From: Escherichia coli
GTDB taxonomy: Bacteria > Pseudomonadota > Gammaproteobacteria > Enterobacterales > Enterobacteriaceae
Length of the DNA: 64,000 nt
Assembly (NCBI RefSeq): GCF_041248615.1
Contig: NZ_CP158425.1
Reading direction: 5' to 3' (one strand)
Shown: positions 1-21,333 of the stretch, one piece after another
Position numbering within the stretch: position 1 is the first letter of the stretch
Layout of the letters: every line of letters begins with the position of its first letter
Translations under genes and position numbers: made by a program
Notes under the pieces: model-generated
The model's database searches: none
What the model was told of the DNA's origin: nothing
Seen by the model: the letters and a program-made list of their open reading frames with translations, nothing else

Positions 1-876
1 ATGATTAAAAACAACGAGTTAATCCATCCTTTTGACGTAACCAGTAATGAATCAGGTAAGACTTATCAACTGACGCCTAACTCGTCCAAGTCGGTTCAGC
101 CCGTGGCCCTGTTGAGATTGAGTGTATTTACCCCTGTCGGCACAAAAGAAAACCGCGACCGAAACTTTGAAGTTGATGCCTCTGATGAGCTTTCGTGTAT
201 GGAAATTGCAAGATCGGAGGGTTATGACGACATCAAGATAACTGGTGTCAAACTATCTATGTCTACCGACTTTAAGTGCTGGCTCGGGATCATCATGGCT
301 TTCAGTAAATATGGTTTTACTTCCGAGAAGATTACCCTGACTTTTAACGAGTTTGCGAAGATGTGTGGTATCAGTTCAACAAACATCAACAAACGAACTC
401 GTGCGCGCTTTAAAGAGTCATTAATGAACCTTGCATCGGTAGTGCTTGCCTTCTCAGACTCTCGGAGTGGTCGGTTCACAGTAACGCATCTGGTGCAGAA
501 GGCTATGATTGATCCAAAAAGCGATACTGTTGAGTTGGTTGGGGATCCTTCTATGTGGGAACTGTATCGTTACGACCATAAGACATTGTTAAGCCTTCAG
601 GTTCTATACATTTTGGCTAAAAAAGAAGCTGCGCAATCTCTCTATATTTATTTTGAAGCAATGCCAGCTGGTACGTTGTTCGTTAATATGAAACGGTTGA
701 GGGAAAGGTTGCTTCTTACAACCCCTATTCGTACGCAAAACCAGATAATTCGTAAAGCAATGCGGGAACTTGAATCTATCGGATATCTCGATTATCAAGA
801 AGTTAAGAAAGGTCGCGACATACAATTTCAGATCTTCAAAAGAAGCCCTAAGCTGGCCCTCGCCAAACAAGGTTGA
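1..876 (+). CDS. repA: Iteron-type plasmid replication initiator RepA (RepFIB/RepHI1-like); ORF begins at window base 1, so the true N-terminus may lie upstream
   Basis: 291-aa ORF with motif pattern recalled from RepFIB-family initiators (AEGYDDIKITG, KKEAAQ, IGYLD); iteron-like repeats follow the stop. Confidence 0.75.
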   Translation: MIKNNELIHPFDVTSNESGKTYQLTPNSSKSVQPVALLRLSVFTPVGTKENRDRNFEVDASDELSCMEIARSEGYDDIKITGVKLSMSTDFKCWLGIIMAFSKYGFTSEKITLTFNEFAKMCGISSTNINKRTRARFKESLMNLASVVLAFSDSRSGRFTVTHLVQKAMIDPKSDTVELVGDPSMWELYRYDHKTLLSLQVLYILAKKEAAQSLYIYFEAMPAGTLFVNMKRLRERLLLTTPIRTQNQIIRKAMRELESIGYLDYQEVKKGRDIQFQIFKRSPKLALAKQG

Positions 877-1104
877 AAGCTACCAGGTATGCACTGGTTA
901 TAACATGCTGAAAAATAAGTTATTTATCAGTGCTATGCTTAGTGCTTCTTTTACTACTGGTCTTACATCTCGGCTTAATGTGCAAAAAAGTAACTTTTCA
1001 AACGAACTCCTGACTATTCATCTGTATGCCTTTCTGGCTCAAGCGTACATGCTAGCCCATTCATTAAATGCCGTGGAGCAAGATGGTTTCGTGCGCACTC
1101 TATT

Positions 1105-1610
1105 CACGTGAATGCCTTTTGTGGATTACGCCTCTTACATTCATACAAATGCTTTTGATGTCGGTATCCCAAAAAATCATTCATTGAAATGCTTTTGTTT
1201 GCCACTGTATCCCGAGCATAGCTATGCAGTGGTATAAAAAGGCATTTTGGTGAATGGCATTAGGTCGAATGACACACAGTACAGCTTTGTTAAGAGCGAG
1301 AATGGTCCAAGACATCTATGACATTGGGCATCAGAAGGACTATGTGTTTGATATGAGATCAAAAAAATATCAGAAGCATCACAACTCCAATGGCATTCAA
1401 AGAAATGCCTTTGTTTTGTTAGTACACCAAACAACCCAAAATTCATGCAGTTATATCAAAGACTCATTCGCAAAAGGACTCAGCCAGAAAGCATTTGCTT
1501 AAATAGCATTGGCCAAAAGCATTCGAATGAATGATGTTCATATGGACAAGACAAAGTCCCACTCACGCCCAGAGGTGTAAAAGGCATTTAGATGAATGAC
1601 GCACCGGCCG
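1105..1610. repeat. Iteron-like repeat cluster downstream of repA (candidate origin/incompatibility repeats)
   Basis: At least 8 copies of a core AAATGC(C/T)TTT or AATGGCATT in both orientations, e.g. tgaatgccttttgtgg, acaaatgcttttgatg, tgaaatgcttttgtttg, aaaaggcattttggtgaatggcatt, caatggcattcaaagaaatgcctttg, aaaaggcatttagatgaatg. Confidence 0.5.
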
Positions 1611-6632: not shown

Positions 6633-7115
6633 ATGGATAGTTTAGAAAAAAAAGAATCGACTGAATCAGCTGGACCTGAAATCACTAAAAAAATGGTGCG
6701 AGAAAGGACAACAAAAAAAATTACCTTCGAAATTGATATTGAAAAAATATTGAAGTATTTATTTTTCTTCGCCTTTGCCGTTTTGGTCATTATTTATGGT
6801 TATAAAGGCTTTATGAATGTTTACGATTACTTCAATAAACAATCACAGCCTTCGTACAAGATTGCAGTGCTTGACATGCCTGAATTACGTAAGGAATTTT
6901 TCAAGCATCACGGAGGCCGTACTGCTGACAATGATAGAACTCAATTCGAAGAATATTTCAGAACATTAATGAAGATCTACCGTGACCGTGGCTATTTAAT
7001 TATTGATGCAACGCTTGCCGTTACTGTACCGGATAGTGTTGAAATCGTCACTTATATGGAACTTGAAGATAGCTCTGAAGCGGTACAATCAAGTTCTTAT
7101 AATGCAAAGAAGTAG
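6633..7115 (+). CDS. Hypothetical membrane protein
   Basis: 160-aa ORF with a central TM segment (YLFFFAFAVLVIIYGY). Confidence 0.4.
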   Translation: MDSLEKKESTESAGPEITKKMVRERTTKKITFEIDIEKILKYLFFFAFAVLVIIYGYKGFMNVYDYFNKQSQPSYKIAVLDMPELRKEFFKHHGGRTADNDRTQFEEYFRTLMKIYRDRGYLIIDATLAVTVPDSVEIVTYMELEDSSEAVQSSSYNAKK

Positions 7116-8954: not shown

Positions 8955-11636
8955 ATGGAAGCTATCAATAATTACAATAGCGGTTTAAATCGCCATCAAT
9001 TAGGTGGGTTTATCCCTGTTTACGATCAATTAGCAGGGACTCACTATTTTTTGATTGATGGCAACAGATTAGGGTTTATGTTTATCTGTAATCCATCACC
9101 TGGAGTTTTTGATAATCAGCAAGATGTTCTTGCTGAAATGTTCAAAATGGATTTTCCTACAGATACTGTCTGTCAAATATCTCTGACTGCATTGCCAGAC
9201 TTGACTTTACAGCTTAGTGCTTGGTCAGCTGTGCGAGGTGGGCGTATGACTGGGAACGATAAGCTTAAAGCAGATCTGCTTAATGGTTATCAGTTGGACT
9301 ACTACGACAGAAGTATGCATAAGCCTTTAAAACCTGATCATGATAACCTTATGTTGAGGGATTTTCAGGTATGGATCTCGCTATCGATTCCTTTACAGTC
9401 TGCCCTTCCTACCGAGCTGGAACATTCGCGTATCGATTCACTTTACTCTGAACTTGTAAGTAAGTTAATTACGATTGGACTGCATCCGTTTAAGGTCGAT
9501 GCAGAAAACTGGCTCTATTGTATAGATAAGGTCGTAAACCCCGGAAAGAACTCTCGGTGGGCTGAAGGTTTTATAGACGTTAACACTATGAAAAGGCTTA
9601 ATGAACAAGTTAACGTTCCCGGCCGTAAGTATACAGTCACAGAAAATCATTTCTCATCAGTCACACAAAGTGACGACGAATCTGAGCATCGTTACTTCAA
9701 ACAACTTTCCGTTGTAAAGTTTCCTGAATACGTCAATTTCGGTTGTATGTATGAGTTAGTAGTTAACTGGATGCATGGACGTAAGACAATTTTCAGCCCA
9801 TTTATGATCACTCAGACTGTTCAGTTTGCCGATCCGCTCAAGTTGTCAAAAGAAAACGTCCGCTACAAAGCAATCACTAATAAACAGGCAAGTATACCTT
9901 CAGTTGTCACATTCTGCCCTCGCCTGCGGGATATGGATAATGACTACATGGCCGTAACTCGCGAGCTTGAGGATGGCGCAAAGCTTTTAAGAGGGTATCT
10001 TACTTTCACTGTTATGGGTAGTAATGCCAATTCTGTGCAGACAGCAGCTAACGATCTCAAATCCTTTTACCTCGAAAGCCGGGTCAAAGTAGCAGATGAT
10101 TCCTTTATCGTTTTCCCGTCATTTATGTCATGTCTGCCAATGTGCAATGACCCAAAGACAATTTTCGACCTTGACCGATCCGAAGTAGTGAGCAACACCG
10201 GAGCGGCTCATATGACGCCGATCTTTGGGCCCTGGAAAGGTAATACAGATAGACCAGTACTGAGTTTAGTTTCTCGTGAAGGTCAACTCATGGGACTTGA
10301 TATTTTCAAGACTTCTGCAAGCTATAACATGGTTATTGGTGCAACGTCAGGTGCAGGCAAGTCATTCTGGACAGCATATCTAATCAATAACTATCTTGGA
10401 GCTGGACCGCGATCTAATAACCTCGTTCATTATCGCTCAACATTTAAGCATTTTTTAGAAAACGAATACCCAGATGATGATCCTGATGGTGCTCAAGTTT
10501 TTGTAGTGGACGTGGGGCGTTCTTACCAGGGGATTGCGGAACAATATACAAACAGTCAATTTATTGATTTCGGTAAAACCCCTGACTTCACCCTAAATCC
10601 CTTTGCCTTCCTAACTGACATCACTGTTAACGACGATGTATTTAACGAAGCACCTGAATTTACCGGTGAATCAACTTCAAACGATGCAGAAAAAGACAAA
10701 GTTGCTCAGACCATAATGGTTCTGAATCAGCTAAAAATTATGGCTTCAGAGAAAGGCCTTATCGATGATTATCAACAATCAGTGATGCTTCAGCTTATTG
10801 CAGAAGAGTACCAGGAATCCAGAAAATCAGGTCGGACCGGTTCAATAACCGGCTTTGCTCTGCGTTGCAAGAAGCATGAAGACAAACGTATAAAGGATAT
10901 TGGGGAGCAACTCGGAGCATGGTGCGAAGGTGGAATTTATGGGCACCGGTTTACCGATACGTTGCCTCCAATCAACTTCGACAGCAGATTTATTGTTTTG
11001 GAACTGGAGGAGCTAAAAGGCACCCCCCACCTTCAGACAGTTGTTTTAATGTCTATCATTCAGGCTGCTCAGCATGCAATGTTCATCAAAAAAGATGGGC
11101 GTCGTCGCTTGTTCATCCTAGATGAAGCTTGGGAGTACATTCGTCCTGATAATTCATCAGGTGCCGGAAATCAATCAAACCAATTCTTCTCTTCCTTCCT
11201 CGAAGCGGCATGGCGTAGGTTCAGGAAAACAAACTGCGCTGGCATCTGTATCACACAGTCGTTTGAAGATTATTTTACTTCTTCTGTTGGCCGGGCCCTG
11301 ACTGCTAACTCGCCTTGGAAGATAATCATGAAACAAGAAAAAGAAAGCATTGAAGCAATGAAGGCTAATAAATATTTTTCTACTTCAGATGCAGAATATG
11401 AACGAATGAAAAATATTCGTACAGTCAAAAAGGTGTTTTCAGAGATGTTAGTCAGGTTCGAAAACTTCCAAGAGATCTGTCGGTTATACGTAGACCGGAA
11501 AATGGAGCTTTGTTTTACTACGGATAGTGCTGACAGGAGTAAATTATGGGAAATTCAAAGCCGCGAGAATTGTAGCTATGGCGAGGCAATAGAAATTCTC
11601 TATGCTCAAGAAGTAGCAGCGGGTTTGGCCGCGTAG
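8955..11636 (+). CDS. trhC: TraC/VirB4-family type IV secretion ATPase
   Basis: 893-aa ORF with Walker A (GATSGAGKSF) and a DE-type Walker B region (FILDEAWEY); size and operon position typical of F-type TraC. Confidence 0.9.
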   Translation: MEAINNYNSGLNRHQLGGFIPVYDQLAGTHYFLIDGNRLGFMFICNPSPGVFDNQQDVLAEMFKMDFPTDTVCQISLTALPDLTLQLSAWSAVRGGRMTGNDKLKADLLNGYQLDYYDRSMHKPLKPDHDNLMLRDFQVWISLSIPLQSALPTELEHSRIDSLYSELVSKLITIGLHPFKVDAENWLYCIDKVVNPGKNSRWAEGFIDVNTMKRLNEQVNVPGRKYTVTENHFSSVTQSDDESEHRYFKQLSVVKFPEYVNFGCMYELVVNWMHGRKTIFSPFMITQTVQFADPLKLSKENVRYKAITNKQASIPSVVTFCPRLRDMDNDYMAVTRELEDGAKLLRGYLTFTVMGSNANSVQTAANDLKSFYLESRVKVADDSFIVFPSFMSCLPMCNDPKTIFDLDRSEVVSNTGAAHMTPIFGPWKGNTDRPVLSLVSREGQLMGLDIFKTSASYNMVIGATSGAGKSFWTAYLINNYLGAGPRSNNLVHYRSTFKHFLENEYPDDDPDGAQVFVVDVGRSYQGIAEQYTNSQFIDFGKTPDFTLNPFAFLTDITVNDDVFNEAPEFTGESTSNDAEKDKVAQTIMVLNQLKIMASEKGLIDDYQQSVMLQLIAEEYQESRKSGRTGSITGFALRCKKHEDKRIKDIGEQLGAWCEGGIYGHRFTDTLPPINFDSRFIVLELEELKGTPHLQTVVLMSIIQAAQHAMFIKKDGRRRLFILDEAWEYIRPDNSSGAGNQSNQFFSSFLEAAWRRFRKTNCAGICITQSFEDYFTSSVGRALTANSPWKIIMKQEKESIEAMKANKYFSTSDAEYERMKNIRTVKKVFSEMLVRFENFQEICRLYVDRKMELCFTTDSADRSKLWEIQSRENCSYGEAIEILYAQEVAAGLAA

Positions 11637-11666
11637 AGTAAATATCTTCAAGCAAAAACAATTAAA

Positions 11667-11697
11667 CCAGATGTCTCATAAGAATCTGGTTTTTTAT
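11667..11697 (+). terminator. Intrinsic terminator candidate after the TraC-like gene
   Basis: Stem CCAGAT/ATCTGG (11667-11672, 11684-11689) with 11-nt loop, followed by a T-run. Confidence 0.45.
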
Positions 11698-12060
11698 TGT
11701 ATGCCTTAAGTAAACAAATGAGGTTATGACTTAATGAGTTCATCACTGTGCTGCAAATTTTGGTTTTATAATTAATATGGCTTAAAAACAGTGACATAAT
11801 TACAAATCGCATTTAGGTTGTGTACGCATTAAGTAAACAAAATTTATAACATCAATACTGACTTTATAAGATGAAATTCACGTAAATTACATTTTTGTTT
11901 ACCAAAGGTAATCAAAGGAGCGCGGCATTATTAGTGAAAACAGATCACTGGTGTCATATTGCATACAAAACTTAATATCCTTTAATCATTCTTCTAAAAG
12001 TTTAATATTAACGCTTTGGTTTATGAAAATTTATCCAATTTGCTCACCGAAGACTTTTAA

Positions 12061-15000
12061 CTTATTTAACCCCCTTTATCGCCAATCTGTGATTTTCTAA
12101 TGTTAGCCTACAGTTCTAGGGCCCTTGCTCCCATGATGCGAATCCTTCCACCTAATAAAGATTAACGCCTCATTCCTGTATGCCGGTCTTACGACGCCAG
12201 TGCACGGACAATTTTTGGTCATCACAAGGCCAGGCGGGAGATTTAATCAGGGCGTGGTGTTCCTTTGCAGCAGCTGCGGCACTGTAAGCCGAAGGCGGAA
12301 TTAACTCCTTTATCGCCATCTGGGGACGTCATTAGGGGTACCCCTTTTAACTTGCTCAGGACCATTAAGCTAAAATTCCGGATAGTGATTGACGTAAGAT
12401 TTAGGCTAAGCAGGTAAAGTGATCCCCGCTCCCGGGGTGACCACTTTATACAAAAGGCCGATCGGAAGATTGTCCTTAGGGAAATATTCCTTTAACACAG
12501 CACGGGCACTTACTGCCGCTGCCGGATTTAACCCCCTTAATCGCCAAACTGGGGTACTGTCCTGATGCTGGCCTTCCGTCCTGGGCAGGGTTGCTAACAC
12601 TTGCTCCCATGATACGAAATGCGCCAGCTGATACAGATTAACGTCTCATTACTCCATGCCGGTCTGCCGAAACTGGTGCATAGCTTTTTTCGATATTCGC
12701 ATGAACAGACGCTTGATTTTTTCAGGTTGTAATATACCTGAGCAGCATCTGAAGGCACTTTCAGTCGCTGTCAGATTTAACCCCCTTAATCGCCAAACTG
12801 GTGTTCTGTCCTCATGCAGGCCTTCAGTTCTGAGCTGGGTTGCTATCACTTGCTCCCATAATGCGAAATGTACCTGCTGATACAAATTAACGTCGTATTC
12901 CTGTATGCCGGTCTGCCGACACCAGTGCTCGGGCTATTTTCGGTCCTAACAAGACCTGGCGAGAGATTTAATCAGGGCGTGGTGTGACTGAGCAGCAGCT
13001 GGGGCACTGTTATCCGCTTGCAGATTTAACCCCCTTAATCGCCACACTGGGGTTCAGTCCTGATAGTGTCCTTCCGTCCTGGGCTCGGTTGCTAACACTT
13101 GCTCCCATGATACGAAATGCGCCTGCTGATACAGATTAAAGTCACATTACTGCATACCGATCTGCCGACTCCGGTGCATGGCTTTTTCCGATAATCACAA
13201 GGACGGACGGGTGATTTTATCTTTGCATAGTATGTCTGAGCAGCATCAGAAGGCTCTGTCAGCCACTGGCAGATTTAACCCCCTTAATCTCCAAACTGGG
13301 ATCAGTCCTGATAGTGTCCTTCCGTCCTGGGCAGGGTTGCTAACACTTGCTCCCATGATACGAAATGTGCCTGCTGATACAGATTAAAATCACATTACTG
13401 CATACCGGTCTGCCGACACCGGTGCATGGGCGATTTCCGACGATCTCAAGAACATATGGGAGATTATATCAGGGAGAGTAGTATGCCTGAGCAGCATCTG
13501 AAGGCACTGTCAGCCGCTGTCAGATTTAACCCCCTTAATCGCCAAACTGGTGTTCTGTCCTCATGCAGGCCTTCAGTTCTGAGCTGGGTTGCTATCACTT
13601 GCTCCCATAATGCGAAATGTACCTGCTGATACAAATTAACGTCGTATTCCTGTATGCCGGTCTGCCGACACCAGTGCTCGGGCTATTTTCGGTCCTAACA
13701 AGACCTGGCGAGAGATTTAATCAGGGCGTGGTGTGACTGAGCAGCAGCTGGGGCACTGTTATCCGCTTGCAGATTTAACCCCCTTAATCGCCACACTGGG
13801 GTTCAGTCCTGATAGTGTCCTTCCGTCCTGGGCTCGGTTGCTAACACTTGCTCCCATGATACGAAATGCGCCTGCTGATACAGATTAAAGTCACATTACT
13901 GCATACCGATCTGCCGACTCCGGTGCATGGCTTTTTCCGATAATCACAAGGACGGACGGGTGATTTTATCTTTGCATAGTATGTCTGAGCAGCATCAGAA
14001 GGCTCTGTCAGCCACTGGCAGATTTAACCCCCTTAATCTCCAAACTGGGATCAGTCCTGATAGTGTCCTTCCGTCCTGGGCAGGGTTGCTAACACTTGCT
14101 CCCATGATACGAAATGCGCCAGCTGATACAGATTAACGTCTCATTACTCCATGCCGGTCTGCCGAAACTGGTGCATAGCTTTTTTCGATATTCGCATGAA
14201 CAGACGCTTGATTTTTTCAGGTTGTAATATACCTGAGCAGCATCTGAAGGCACTTTCAGTCGCTGTCAGATTTAACCCCCTTAATCGCCAATCTGGGATT
14301 TTCTGATGTTAACCTACAGTTCAAGGCCCTTGCTCCCATGATGCGAACCTTGCAACCTGATAAAGATTTAAGCCTCATTCCTGTATGCCGGTCTTACGAC
14401 TCTAGTGCACGGGGACTATTTTCGGTCATAATAAGACCTGGCGGGAGATTTAATCAGGGCGTGGTGTGACTGAGCAGAAGCTGGGGCACTGTCAGCCGCT
14501 GGCAGATTAAAACCCTTTATTCGCCATCTCAAGACGTCATTATGGGTAGTCCTTTTAACTTTCTAAGGACCATTAAGCTTAAACTCCGTTTAGAGAATGA
14601 CGTAAGATTTAGGCTAAGCAGGTTAAGTGATCCCCGCTCCCGGGTTGAACACTTTATTCATCGTACGAGCGAAAGATTGTCCTTCGGGAAATATTTCTTA
14701 TACACCGCTCGGGCACTTACAGCCACTGGCGGATTTAACCCCCTTAATCGCCAAACTGGGGTACTGTCCTGATGCTGGCCTTCAGTTCTGGGCTGGGTGG
14801 CTATCACTTGCTCCCCTAATGCGAAATGTGTCTGTTAATACAGATTAACGTCATTTTCCTGCGTGCCGGTCTGCCGACACCAGTGCACGGCCTTTTTTCG
14901 GTCATTACATTACCGGGCAGGAGATTTTATCAGGGCGTGGTGTTACTGAGCAGGAGCTGGGGCACTATCAGCAGCTTGCATATTTAACTCCCTTAATCGC

Positions 15001-15640
15001 CAAACTGGTGTTCTGTCCTCATGCTGGCCTTCAGTTCTGGGCTGGGTTGCTATCTCTTGCTCCCATAATGCGAAATGTATCTGCTGATACAGATTAACGT
15101 CATATTCCTGTATGCCGGTCTGCCGACACCAGTGCTTGGGCTATTTTCGGTCATAACAAGACCTGGCGAGAGATTTACTCAGGGCGTGGTGTGACTGAGC
15201 AGCAGCTGGGGCACTGTCATCCGCTTGCAAATTTAACCCCCTTAATCGCCAAACTTGGGTTTTGTCCTGATGCTGGCCTTCCGTTCTGGGCGGGGTTGCT
15301 ATCACTTGCTCCCATCATGCGAAAAGTGCCTGCTGATACAGATTAACGTCATATTCCTTCATGCCGGTCTGCCGACACAAATGCACGGGCTTTTTTCGGT
15401 CCTTACAATACCGGGCAGGAGATTTAATCAGGGCGTGGTGTGACTGAGCAGCAGCTAGGACACTGTCAGCCGCTGGCAGATTTAACCCCCTTAATCGCCA
15501 CACTGGGGTTGCCTCCTGAAGTTGGGTTTCAGTTCTGGGCTAGGTTGCTAACTCTGCTCCCATAATTCGTAGTGGGCCTACTCAAGAGATTAACACCTCA
15601 TATCTTTAGACTGGACTGACGACAACGATTCACAGTTAGG
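12061..15640. repeat. Tandem array of about 14 direct repeats of ~249 bp with nested higher-order duplications
   Basis: The motif GATTTAACCCCCTTAATCGCCA(A/C)ACTGG recurs at about 12524, 12773, 13022, 13271, 13521, 13771, 14020, 14268, 14732, 14982, 15229 and 15478, with diverged copies at about 12062, 12300 and 14505. A 749-bp block is near-identical at 12650-13398 and 13399-14147, and the 12061-12600 flank is echoed at 14270-14810. Confidence 0.9.
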
Positions 15641-15973
15641 AAACGTAAATCAGCACACCGGTGAGATAGATTTTAGGGTCTAAGCAAGAAATAGGGTAGG
15701 CGTGAAGATTCATTAATGGAGCTCATAACGTCAAAGCGTAGAGAAGTCGACAAGAATCGTGGTTTAAAAAGAATGAGCATTAGGTATGGACTAGAGAGTC
15801 TGAGCTCTCATCTGCAAGTTAAGCTCACAAAAAATCATAAAAAAGTAAACAAACATTAGCTTAGGATTGAAACAAAGGATAGAATTGTACGTATAACAAT
15901 GAAATGGACGCATTATGCGTAAAGTTTACATATATGCGTAAAAGTCGGTTTTCAGTGCAAAAAGGTCATAACC

Positions 15974-17227
15974 ATGAATTTACTTGAAAAGATCGCCCTC
16001 GTTGGTCAGCGCATGAAAAGCGAGCAGATTTCTCTTAAGGAATCTCTGATGGCTTCATCAAGAGTATCTGTTTCTGATGATAGTGTTGATGGTGTTGATA
16101 GACTGATCTACAACCACTGTTTAAATAAAAAAAATCTCTCTGATTTTTTTGGGAAGTCACGAGTAACGTTCAATAAAATACTTTCGGACTTAGAAGAAAA
16201 AGAAGTTGTTGGTGCACCTATTTATCAAAACAAAAATCATCTTTACACCCGCTGGGATGTTCAAAAAATAATGGATGCCCTGGGTTATCCCAAGTACCGC
16301 GATCATTACTTTAGCAGAGCTATTGTTACTCAGAATCATAAAGGCGGTACAGGGAAAAGCACTACATCTGTAGCTTTAGCAGTAGCAGCTGCTTTAGATC
16401 TACAACTGAATGCACGTGTATTAATGATCGAATGGGACCCACAAGGTTCGATTGGAAGCAGCATGATTCAAAGTGTCTCAGAAGATGATGTCTTCCTTAC
16501 AGCAATTGATGCAATCCTTGGAATTTATGAAGAAAATTCTGAGTATAAAAAATATTTAGATTCAGGATTCTCTGAAGAAGAAATCATCACTAATATGCCT
16601 TTTTCAACGCATCTGCCAAACTTGGACGTGATAACGGCATTTCCGACAGATGCTCGTTTTAAAGATAAATACTGGCAATGTTCTAGAGAAGAACGAACGT
16701 CTTTGTTACTACGTTTCAAGGAAGTTATCTTACCGGTACTGAAGCAGAACTATGATTTGATTATTATAGACACTCCACCTGAAGATTCACCTTTGATCTG
16801 GGCTGCTGACGAAGCGGCCGATGGGATTCTTGTCGCAGTGTCACCACGTGAATATGATTACGCCTCTACTACAGACTTCATGCTTACAATAAGTGAAAGG
16901 TTTAAACAATCACCAAGTAAGGGCGATAATTTAAAATGGTTCAAAGTTCTTGCTGTCAATGTTGATGACAAAAGTCCATATGAAAGAATAGTTTTGGATA
17001 AATTAATCAGAACTGTTCAGGACCTTTTGATGTCCGCTAACATAAAAAATTCTGAAGCATTTAAGGCAGCTGCTTCCAAAGGGCGTACAGTGCTTGATAT
17101 CAAAAAATCAGAGGAACTTTGTTCCGCAAAGCAACTTGATGTCGCAGAAGAATCTGTATTACAGGTATATCAACAATTTATAAATGAAATAAAAAGTTTT
17201 TCAGCTAAGCAAGGAGTTAACGCATGA
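15974..17227 (+). CDS. parA: Type Ia partition ATPase ParA (SopA/P1-ParA-like, N-terminal HTH extension)
   Basis: 417 aa; deviant Walker A (KGGTGKST) preceded by a ~110-aa N-terminal domain; translationally coupled to the downstream ParB-like gene. Confidence 0.9.
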   Translation: MNLLEKIALVGQRMKSEQISLKESLMASSRVSVSDDSVDGVDRLIYNHCLNKKNLSDFFGKSRVTFNKILSDLEEKEVVGAPIYQNKNHLYTRWDVQKIMDALGYPKYRDHYFSRAIVTQNHKGGTGKSTTSVALAVAAALDLQLNARVLMIEWDPQGSIGSSMIQSVSEDDVFLTAIDAILGIYEENSEYKKYLDSGFSEEEIITNMPFSTHLPNLDVITAFPTDARFKDKYWQCSREERTSLLLRFKEVILPVLKQNYDLIIIDTPPEDSPLIWAADEAADGILVAVSPREYDYASTTDFMLTISERFKQSPSKGDNLKWFKVLAVNVDDKSPYERIVLDKLIRTVQDLLMSANIKNSEAFKAAASKGRTVLDIKKSEELCSAKQLDVAEESVLQVYQQFINEIKSFSAKQGVNA

Positions 17228-18228
17228 GCGATGAGCAACATATCGGGAATGATAAATCTCGATATTTAAACGCACCAAAGCGGACAGAAGTCGGTCACCG
17301 TTCAGGTCTTGCGGGTTTGAAAACAGCACCTCGCATAAAAAAGTTATTCACTCTTCATAAGGGCCGAAGACTTGAAGCGGAACATGTGATTGTTCCAGCC
17401 CAGAGAGTGGAGAAGGAGACCTTAGTCCATCCAGCAAACCCACGAAATCAAGAAGCCCTTACAGATTATTCTGTTAGAGATATTCTTAAGCAGATTGAAG
17501 AAAGAGGGGTCGATACCGAAGGGATCGCTGTAAAAAGAGATGGGGTTTATTTATTAATAGAAGGAAGTCGCAGACGTTTCTGCTGTATAAAGGCAGAAAA
17601 GGATCTCCCCCTGTGGGTACTACCGGATGAACTAACCGAAGATGATATAAATTCAATTATATCCGCAGCACAAACATCTCGAAAATTTTCATATAGAGAA
17701 GTTGGGTTTCAATTTATCAAGAAAATGGAAGAAAAGGGATTTTCTACTAATGAAGAACTCGCAGCATATCTTGGGATTAGTCATGTATCGGTAGCCAAAA
17801 GAATCCAGGCGGCCCGTATTGACGAAACATTGATCTCTTTATTCCCGGATTATGAAGGAATACCGAACTCCTATTATAGTCGCTTGTCTCGTTTACAGAA
17901 ATATGTGCAAAAAAATCTATTTCCTTTAGATGAAGTAATAGATAATGTTAAAGAGGAAACAAAAGATTTAGACATTGGAGATCTCCAAGTTGCCCAAAAA
18001 GTTGTAATGGAGAAAATCACACAATCTGTGGAAAGTGTTTGTGAAAAATCTTATTCCACAAAATGGGAAACAAGTGATCTTATTACTTTTGATAACAAAG
18101 ATAAGTATGCAAGAATCAGTAAAAACAATACTGGAAGAAAAATTCGCATTGAATTCAATAGGATAAGTGCGGGTTTTATTAAGGAGCTAGAGGAGTTCAT
18201 AAAAGAAAAATTAAAAGTATCAGAATAA
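17224..18228 (+). CDS. parB: ParB-like partition protein (centromere-binding)
   Basis: 334-aa ORF overlapping the parA stop by 4 nt; size and operon context typical of type I ParB/SopB. Confidence 0.7.
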   Translation: MSDEQHIGNDKSRYLNAPKRTEVGHRSGLAGLKTAPRIKKLFTLHKGRRLEAEHVIVPAQRVEKETLVHPANPRNQEALTDYSVRDILKQIEERGVDTEGIAVKRDGVYLLIEGSRRRFCCIKAEKDLPLWVLPDELTEDDINSIISAAQTSRKFSYREVGFQFIKKMEEKGFSTNEELAAYLGISHVSVAKRIQAARIDETLISLFPDYEGIPNSYYSRLSRLQKYVQKNLFPLDEVIDNVKEETKDLDIGDLQVAQKVVMEKITQSVESVCEKSYSTKWETSDLITFDNKDKYARISKNNTGRKIRIEFNRISAGFIKELEEFIKEKLKVSE

Positions 18229-20970: not shown

Positions 20971-21333
20971 AAATTCCTCTACGTATGTTTACATCGATGA
21001 TACGGTATTTCGAGCTATGATTTTTTTACATAAAGGCGTCATTTTGGATTCTAAGCCTAAGGACCTTTGTTACTTACTGGTAAAGGCTCCAGTCCTGGCT
21101 CTCAAACAGTTCATACTTAGGATGCAAAGTAACTTTCTGATTATAATTGGCTCCTTTATAAACATGTTTACTTCATGAATACAGGATATTTAACGGTAAT
21201 GTATTTAAAATGGAAGGATGCTGAAATAACATAGAGTTACGTATTTTTTTAATAGTGTTGATGTTGATAATAGGTCACCATTAATGTATAAAGTTAATAT
21301 CTAATATGGTCCTATTAATAAAAGAGAGTTTTT

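Follow-up and report, generated by a model that had tools for sequence, protein, structure and literature searches.

The transfer gene trhC and the partition gene parA of IncHI2 plasmids are separated by 4.3 kb without annotated genes, most of which is a tandem array. The AT-rich DNA in front of this array contains a short motif in several copies, which raises the question of what these copies are and whether they serve the transfer operon, the partition locus or neither. The window, i.e., the whole stretch of 64,000 nucleotides that was analyzed, forms the initial 64 kb of a conjugative resistance plasmid of the IncHI2 group. Over the query region, identity to NZ_CP022165.1 (pM160133_p1; 233,149 bp; replicon IncHI2A; relaxase MOBH) is 100%, and more than 1,100 PLSDB plasmids from Escherichia, Salmonella, Enterobacter and other hosts match this region. 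IncHI2 plasmids are important vehicles of mcr-1, mcr-9 and carbapenemase genes, and the parAB/parS module, which is embedded in the transfer region, underlies their stability.

The gene trhC encodes a TraC-family ATPase (8955-11636, + strand, from the list of open reading frames and the annotation of the identical record NZ_CP022165.1) and lies within the Tra2 region. In IncHI Tra2, trhC is the final gene of the AC transfer operon (PMC7366339). The same record annotates parA at 15974-17227 and parB at 17224-18228. The IncHI2-specific spacer between trhC and the parS array (11637-12060) begins at the trhC stop codon and comprises 424 bp with 28.5% GC; a description of it was not found in the literature searched.

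Three related elements in the trhC-parS spacer

The original prediction placed two direct copies of TTAAGTAAACAAA at 11706-11718 and 11829-11841 and an inverted partial copy, TTGTTTAC, at 11895-11902, and all of these coordinates are exact. The elements are, however, longer than first noted, existing as three copies of approximately 22 nt, two direct and one inverted. Copy c1 (11697-11718, + strand; TTGTATGCCTTAAGTAAACAAA) starts one base past the T-tract of a terminator, and c2 (11820-11841, + strand; GTGTACGCATTAAGTAAACAAA), located 123 bp downstream of c1, is identical to it at 19 of 21 positions. Copy c3 (11894-11915, - strand; TTGATTACCTTTGGTAAACAAA) is identical to c1 at 17 of 22 positions and is self-complementary at 17 of 22; read on the + strand, c3 is TTTGTTTAC-CAAAG-GTAATCAAA, and the reverse complement of c1 matches c3 at 15 of 22 positions. 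The spacings between successive copies are 123 and 75 bp.

Dinucleotide-preserving shuffles of the 424-nt spacer (28.5% GC) were used as the null model. A 13-nt exact direct repeat arises in 0.8% of the shuffles, a direct pair of 21-mers with 19 of 21 identities in none of 1000, and any non-simple 9-mer in three copies in 2.4%. When c1 and c2 are used as probes, a third match of at least 17/22 is found in 0.4% of the shuffled remainders. The motif is also more frequent than AT-rich DNA of this composition would yield, with three occurrences of GTAAACAA observed and 0.07 expected. The three-copy repeat is thus confirmed as real and is somewhat stronger than first stated.

Some features of the repeat are unremarkable taken singly. 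On its own, the perfect match of 10 nt in inverted orientation between c2 and c3, GTAAACAAAA/TTTTGTTTAC, does not reach significance, as inverted matches at least this long occur in 72% of the shuffles; 8-mer triplets occur in 16%, and palindromy of the degree seen in the elements is common in AT-rich shuffles. Additionally, a scan of a 298-Gb collection for the two-copy pattern returned approximately 12 coincidental matches in unrelated AT-rich genomes. Pure coincidence in AT-rich DNA is nevertheless extremely unlikely to account for the elements, given the shuffle results for the 19/21 pair and the third copy. Moreover, when the whole 233-kb plasmid is surveyed for pairs of 21-mers with at least 19 of 21 identities less than 400 bp apart, such local repeats are found at only seven loci, c1/c2 included. 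The similarity between c1 and c2 does not extend significantly beyond the block of approximately 22 nt (downstream p = 0.11, upstream p = 0.78), and an old 123-bp tandem duplication was rejected for this lack of significant similarity outside the block. Because the copies are dispersed and one is inverted, replication slippage is not a ready source for them.

The spacer contains few other features. An intrinsic terminator of trhC is present at 11663-11696 (+ strand), with the stem AAACCAGAU...AUCUGGUUU followed by a U-tract (-16.6 kcal/mol, z = -3.6; the RNA fold is equalled by 1 of 200 shuffles). Its core stem is 9 bp long, UUUUUU follows directly, and it lies 27 nt past the trhC stop; an A-run upstream of the stem possibly permits bidirectional termination. 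The sole sigma-70-like promoter match (11772-11800, + strand) consists of TTAATA, a 17-nt spacer and CATAAT. A 54-aa ORF occupies 11648-11812 on the - strand. These features could make the repeats parts of a promoter, a small RNA gene or a small ORF, for which the possibly two-way terminator might also speak, but this is very unlikely. Sigma-70-like sites are fewer in the spacer than expected by chance (1 vs 2.3), and the -10 hexamer is CATAAA in the second IncHI2 allele, with the final T lost, so the match is probably non-functional. An Rfam search of the spacer returned no match near threshold, and the ORF is low-complexity, AT-driven and unannotated in pM160133_p1, pOSUKPC4 and 60 records sampled.

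Relation to the centromere array and other known sites

The elements were originally described as lying immediately before the repeat array. This is approximately correct: the first parS core occupies 12064-12083, some 150 nt past c3. The array (12050-15711, + strand; approximately 3.6 kb) consists of approximately 15-16 units of 228-251 bp by core count, whereas TRF gives 12.6 copies of 249 bp, and each unit carries one copy of the core GATTTAACCCCCTTAATCGCCA, which is highly conserved across the units. ParB is of the P1 type (28% identity to P1 ParB over 306 aa, E = 4e-31; Pfam PF08775), ParA is 25% identical to P1 ParA, and comparison with the annotated P1 parS reveals the B-box hexamer TCGCCA and an A-box-like ATTTAAC in the array core. 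Since the core contains P1-type boxes and recurs upstream of parA in relatives, with periods of 43 bp in a Buttiauxella plasmid and 52-55 bp in R27, pNDM-CIT-type plasmids and a Plautia-symbiont plasmid, the array is assigned as the centromere. The IncHI2 unit is approximately five times as long as those of the relatives.

The organization of this centromere varies. Within IncHI2, the array copy number differs among records with the same origin, such that parA starts at 14726, 14975, 15473 or 15974. R27 contains two blocks of 52-54-bp parS repeats in the interval from trhC to parA (L005, 3553-3760 and 4674-5740), with approximately 900 bp of other sequence between them. A related parAB is found on a Dot/Icm-type (T4BSS) plasmid in a Logan contig (SRR28810157; L015, 7700-7855), where only two parS cores, inverted, precede parA and flank approximately nine GGTG(T/C)A repeats with an 11-bp period. 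In the type II partition locus of the present plasmid, the DNA upstream of parM (20971-21333) shows no clear parC-type iteron set and only weak two-copy repeats.

A protein-binding or bending site at the edge of the array, bound by ParB or a nucleoid protein, had been suggested for the motif. The protein-binding part appears reasonable, as the copies exceed chance, are dispersed, partly palindromic and in one case inverted, and the local-repeat survey and a palindrome cluster in IncHI1-type plasmids (both below) point the same way; the links to ParB, to bending and to the array edge are not supported. The elements contain neither TCGCCA nor an A-box heptamer (ATTTCAC/ATTTAAC), TCGCCA-type cores starting only at 12078, so they are not P1-type parS sites. 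No copy carries parS boxes, and all other lineages of this ParAB family possess parS arrays without the element. For bending, the obvious comparison is P1 parS with its accessory IHF site, where, according to the P1 record annotation, a host bending protein binds AT-rich DNA adjoining the ParB boxes. The likeness lies in the P1-like ParA and ParB and in the TCGCCA and ATTTAAC of the core. Unlike the P1 IHF site, however, the elements lie outside the array and not between ParB boxes, and no match to the IHF consensus WATCAANNNNTTR, which is usually preceded by an AT-rich tract, overlaps c1, c2 or c3 when at most one mismatch is allowed. Within the spacer, one-mismatch IHF matches occur only at 11995-12021, and the window-wide count is at chance frequency (129 vs 116 expected). 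Homology to P1 parS was also considered and rejected: ACTGACT and GTAAATTAC are common to both sequences, but the alignment with the spacer does not exceed chance (p = 0.22). Relatives with the same parS core do not have the elements.

Another way to connect the elements with the centromere is to regard them as decayed units in which TTAA-GTAAAC is a mutated TTAA-TCGCCA core. The distance from 11829 to 12075 is 246 bp, close to the unit periods of 228-251 bp, which places c2 in register with the period of approximately 249 bp, and the context of c1 aligns collinearly, although weakly, with a unit core. Against this, the score of that alignment coincides with the mean of the shuffles, c1 is half a period out of register, and a 15-unit profile HMM (nhmmer, maximum sensitivity, E up to 100) has no match in the left flank, while the same profile does detect a decayed last unit on the right flank. 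Decayed centromere units are therefore a most improbable origin for the elements.

The type Ia ParA repressor offers a further candidate, in which the elements would be secondary operators; the array would then be bracketed by pseudo-operators (left) and the true operator (right). Operator repeats are known in type Ia partition operons, such as the P1 ParA operator and the SopA sites of F, and the elements resemble these in being short, partly palindromic and present in several copies near a par operon. The parA promoter and putative operator of the present plasmid (15886-15941, + strand) contain the perfect palindrome GTAAAGTTTAC and four ACGCAT boxes, of which two are direct and two inverted. 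A piece of 32-37 nt is shared with IncHI1-type plasmids at approximately 94% identity, and the region is probably the ParA operator. Copy c2 contains TGTACGCATTA, which is the operator box upstream of parA in pNDM-CIT-type plasmids and in Logan contig L017, and its TACGCAT-TAAGTAAAC agrees at 15 of 16 positions, with one gap, with the reverse complement of a segment of the plasmid's own operator, TACGCATATATGTAAAC. The operator palindrome and the occurrence of AAGTAAACA upstream of parA would also fit this scheme.

Such a role is nevertheless quite unlikely. The score of the c2 match is reached by 18% of shuffles and by 8% of real 424-nt windows, and TACGCATWA occurs four times plasmid-wide, with approximately 4.4 expected from base composition (own calculation). 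A diverged duplicate of the parA promoter was rejected as the source of the spacer: the alignment of the left flank with the promoter is collinear, yet 38% of shuffles score as well. The position of AAGTAAAC upstream of parA is not conserved in R27 or L017. In contrast to type Ia operators, the elements do not overlap the par promoter but lie beyond the array, 4.1 kb upstream of parA, and their similarity to the operator does not exceed chance.

A fourth AAGTAAACAAA is present at 15843-15853 (+ strand), 131 nt upstream of parA, as a short core only; alignments to L003 and R27 show that the homologous position differs in other lineages. Of the five occurrences of the 9-mer AAGTAAACA on the 233-kb plasmid, four lie in par-related non-coding DNA, i.e., c1, c2, upstream of parA (15843-15851) and upstream of parM (21165-21173, - strand). 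The extended context of the latter two is unlike that of the elements and their positions are not conserved in R27; the recurrence in par-related DNA is probably a coincidence.

Replication iterons, which form the second major class of local repeat here, were also considered. Rep-binding iterons can lie outside an origin, as in P1 incA between repA and parA, and the elements resemble these in size (approximately 20 bp), in copy number (several) and in their location in non-coding DNA by maintenance genes. The plasmid has two iteron families. The first, CATTCA-N4-AATGCYTTT, belongs to a RepB-type replicon (window 1014-1600; L013, 19015-19098), where approximately 14 copies flank a RepB-family initiator gene (window 1-876). 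The second, TCACTACCATTGTCAC, is that of RepHI2 (L013, 1400-5400); repHI2 is adjoined by a long array whose 81-bp units each contain two mutually inverted GACAACGGTAGTGA-type iterons (L013, 1400-3250 and 4600-5410). Unlike true Rep iterons, the elements match neither family over the full length, and only the half-site-like TGTATGCCTT is common to an element and a single iteron. Consensus sequences of CpxR, PhoP, OmpR, CRP and KorA-like regulators, compared by eye, give partial and post hoc matches, and none is claimed. A plasmid-wide regulator motif was likewise rejected: no other site on the 233-kb plasmid matches any copy at 17 or more of 22 positions, and at 16/22 there are 11 equally good chance matches scattered over it, among them the one upstream of parM.

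Distribution of the spacer and repeats in related plasmids

By BLAST, the spacer is confined to IncHI2 plasmids, where it occurs as two alleles (identities of 100% and 96.4%). Diverged copies were sought in PLSDB (near and distant modes), by ParA-based searches, by contig look-ups and by the GTDB-wide scan for the two-copy pattern, which yielded nothing beyond these two alleles and lineages that lack the spacer; besides the coincidental matches given above, the scan recovered the second allele once more, from Superficieibacter and Pseudocitrobacter. Neither the spacer nor the element has a homologue in the IncHI1, pNDM-CIT-type, Buttiauxella, Plautia-symbiont and Logan relatives, all of which have parS arrays. 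In particular, GTAAACA is absent from the array-distal flanks of R27, L003, L006, L014, L015, L016, L017 and L018, and the parS core is present in all of them. Among the IncHI subgroups, the parS core and the 32-37-nt piece of the parA operator are the only conserved non-coding sequences, and the DNA to the left of the array gives no alignment, not even when R27 is compared with the pNDM-CIT type. In the IncHI1 plasmid P-stx-12 of S. Typhi, the same spacer region, approximately 200 bp past trhC, contains an IS1-flanked betT segment (L002, 7349-12227).

The two IncHI2 alleles differ at 15 of 424 spacer positions (3.5%). Across trhV, trhC, parA and parB, the same alleles show synonymous differences of 3.7% (48 of 1283 sites) and non-synonymous differences of 0.13%, and the spacer taken as a whole changes at a roughly neutral pace. 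The 66 nt of the elements, where approximately 2.3 differences would be expected, contain none of the 15 (P ~0.08; own calculation, from two alleles only). The missing substitutions are no more than suggestive; the bona fide parA operator region carries three allele differences.

These data bear directly on the possibility that the elements are a non-functional relic, in which a patch of approximately 22 nt was copied twice, once inverted, e.g., by template switching or short-patch conversion, within a neutral AT-rich spacer that only holds a terminator and separates two operons. Such a relic is a close rival of the binding-site reading, and we regard it as a serious possibility, albeit one that is somewhat improbable. 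It accords with a spacer divergence equal to that of the flanking synonymous sites, with the lack of a homologue in parS-bearing relatives and of enrichment elsewhere on the plasmid, with the failure of every known consensus to fit and with an absence of substitutions that does not reach significance. However, it would be unusual for two independent, short and dispersed copying events, one of them in inverted orientation, to fall within 220 bp, and the similarity is limited to sharp islands of approximately 22 nt. Two further observations against a relic come from the comparable repeats of the plasmid, most of which are functional binding sites, and from the IncHI1 lineages, which have a non-random palindrome cluster at the same position.

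The first of these rests on the seven loci of the local-repeat survey. Apart from c1/c2, they comprise two parS clusters, two RepHI2 iteron clusters, one gene for Ig-like domains and one intergenic pair, so that 4 of the 6 other loci are known protein-binding repeats, which indicates that non-coding local repeats on this plasmid are mostly protein-binding sites. The intergenic pair, the sole one outside parS, the iterons and the Ig-like-domain gene, is the direct repeat CAACCAACTTTTGCACGAAAC / CAACCAAGTTTTGCACAAAAC, whose copies are 46 bp apart (L010, 43976-44045; plasmid 107976-108045).

The second concerns the AT-rich stretch that lies 300-600 nt past trhC in R27 and the pNDM-CIT-type plasmid, each of which contains 4-5 palindromes of the form GGTT-N(3-11)-AACC (R27, L005, 3218-3468; L003, 7433-7743; consensus approximately ATGGTT...AACCAT). 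None of 2000 shuffles reaches these counts, and the motif is almost absent from the rest of those loci. To our knowledge, this cluster after trhC has not been described. Because the motif is common to DNA that is otherwise unalignable, the cluster is suggested to be functional. It resembles the elements in its location, an AT-rich stretch past the trhC terminator, in being strongly non-random and in its spacing (about 60-160 bp), with 4-5 sites compared with three. The sequence, however, is unrelated: GGTT-N-AACC was not found in the IncHI2 spacer, which has the c1-c3 family instead. A cluster of binding sites after trhC may thus be a general IncHI trait with a lineage-specific sequence.

The Buttiauxella plasmid (L014, contig SODY01000009.1, 7129-13538) reveals which neighbor such stretches accompany. 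Its parAB and 43-bp parS array are inverted with respect to trhC, such that parB and trhC converge on a gap of 592 bp, which is AT-rich and contains ATGGTT/AACCAT motifs and the 9-bp inverted repeat TATGGTTCT...AGAACCATA. The palindrome-bearing AT-rich stretch adjoins the 3' end of trhC, and the array lies elsewhere, on the far side of parAB. The post-trhC AT-rich stretches therefore go with the end of the transfer operon and not with the edge of the array, contrary to the array-edge placement proposed at the outset.

Possible role at the transfer/partition junction

The copies exceed chance, are partly palindromic, are confined to this locus and follow a good terminator. In light of these properties, the best explanation is that the three elements are cis-acting sites at which a single DNA-binding protein, sequence-specific, probably dimeric and restricted to the IncHI2 lineage, would bind. 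That they are lineage-specific candidate sites for a dimeric protein at the tra/par junction is proposed tentatively, with confidence that falls somewhat short of even, and both the binding and its effect are inferred from sequence comparison. The binding-site reading has to accommodate the lack of a predictable binding protein nearby, of an IHF match and of the element in other par lineages. The small proteins encoded in the vicinity gave no DNA-binding Pfam or NCBIfam match. One related record names the 160-aa protein encoded between trhB and htdT (window 6633-7115) a "transcriptional regulator", but this label looks doubtful, as the protein matches no DNA-binding family and contains a membrane-like segment that is clearly hydrophobic.

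With spacings of 123 and 75 bp, a protein bound to the three partly palindromic sites would assemble into a small nucleoprotein complex, located outside the centromere proper. The most plausible job of this complex would be to mark or insulate the point where the transfer operon meets the partition locus, possibly by backing up termination of the AC operon or by limiting spread out of the centromere array.

In a more specific version, the elements and the GGTT-N-AACC palindromes of the IncHI1-type plasmids would both be sites of a lineage-specific protein that bounds the transfer operon against the partition locus. The complex would act as a roadblock that stops ParB clamps from sliding out of the large parS array into the tra genes and silencing them or, equally, that keeps read-through from tra from disturbing the centromere. 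It would then be a dedicated insulator, with a DNA specificity that co-evolves with each IncHI lineage. As a whole, this version is quite unlikely.

If the elements are a relic, nothing follows. They are in any case a small, lineage-restricted detail, and the parS array and the palindrome clusters after trhC are more informative. If the elements do bind a protein, they would represent a cis-acting site at the junction of transfer and partition, in DNA that is unannotated in the records examined, and, together with the palindrome cluster of the IncHI1-type plasmids, would hint at an unstudied, lineage-specific component of these plasmids.
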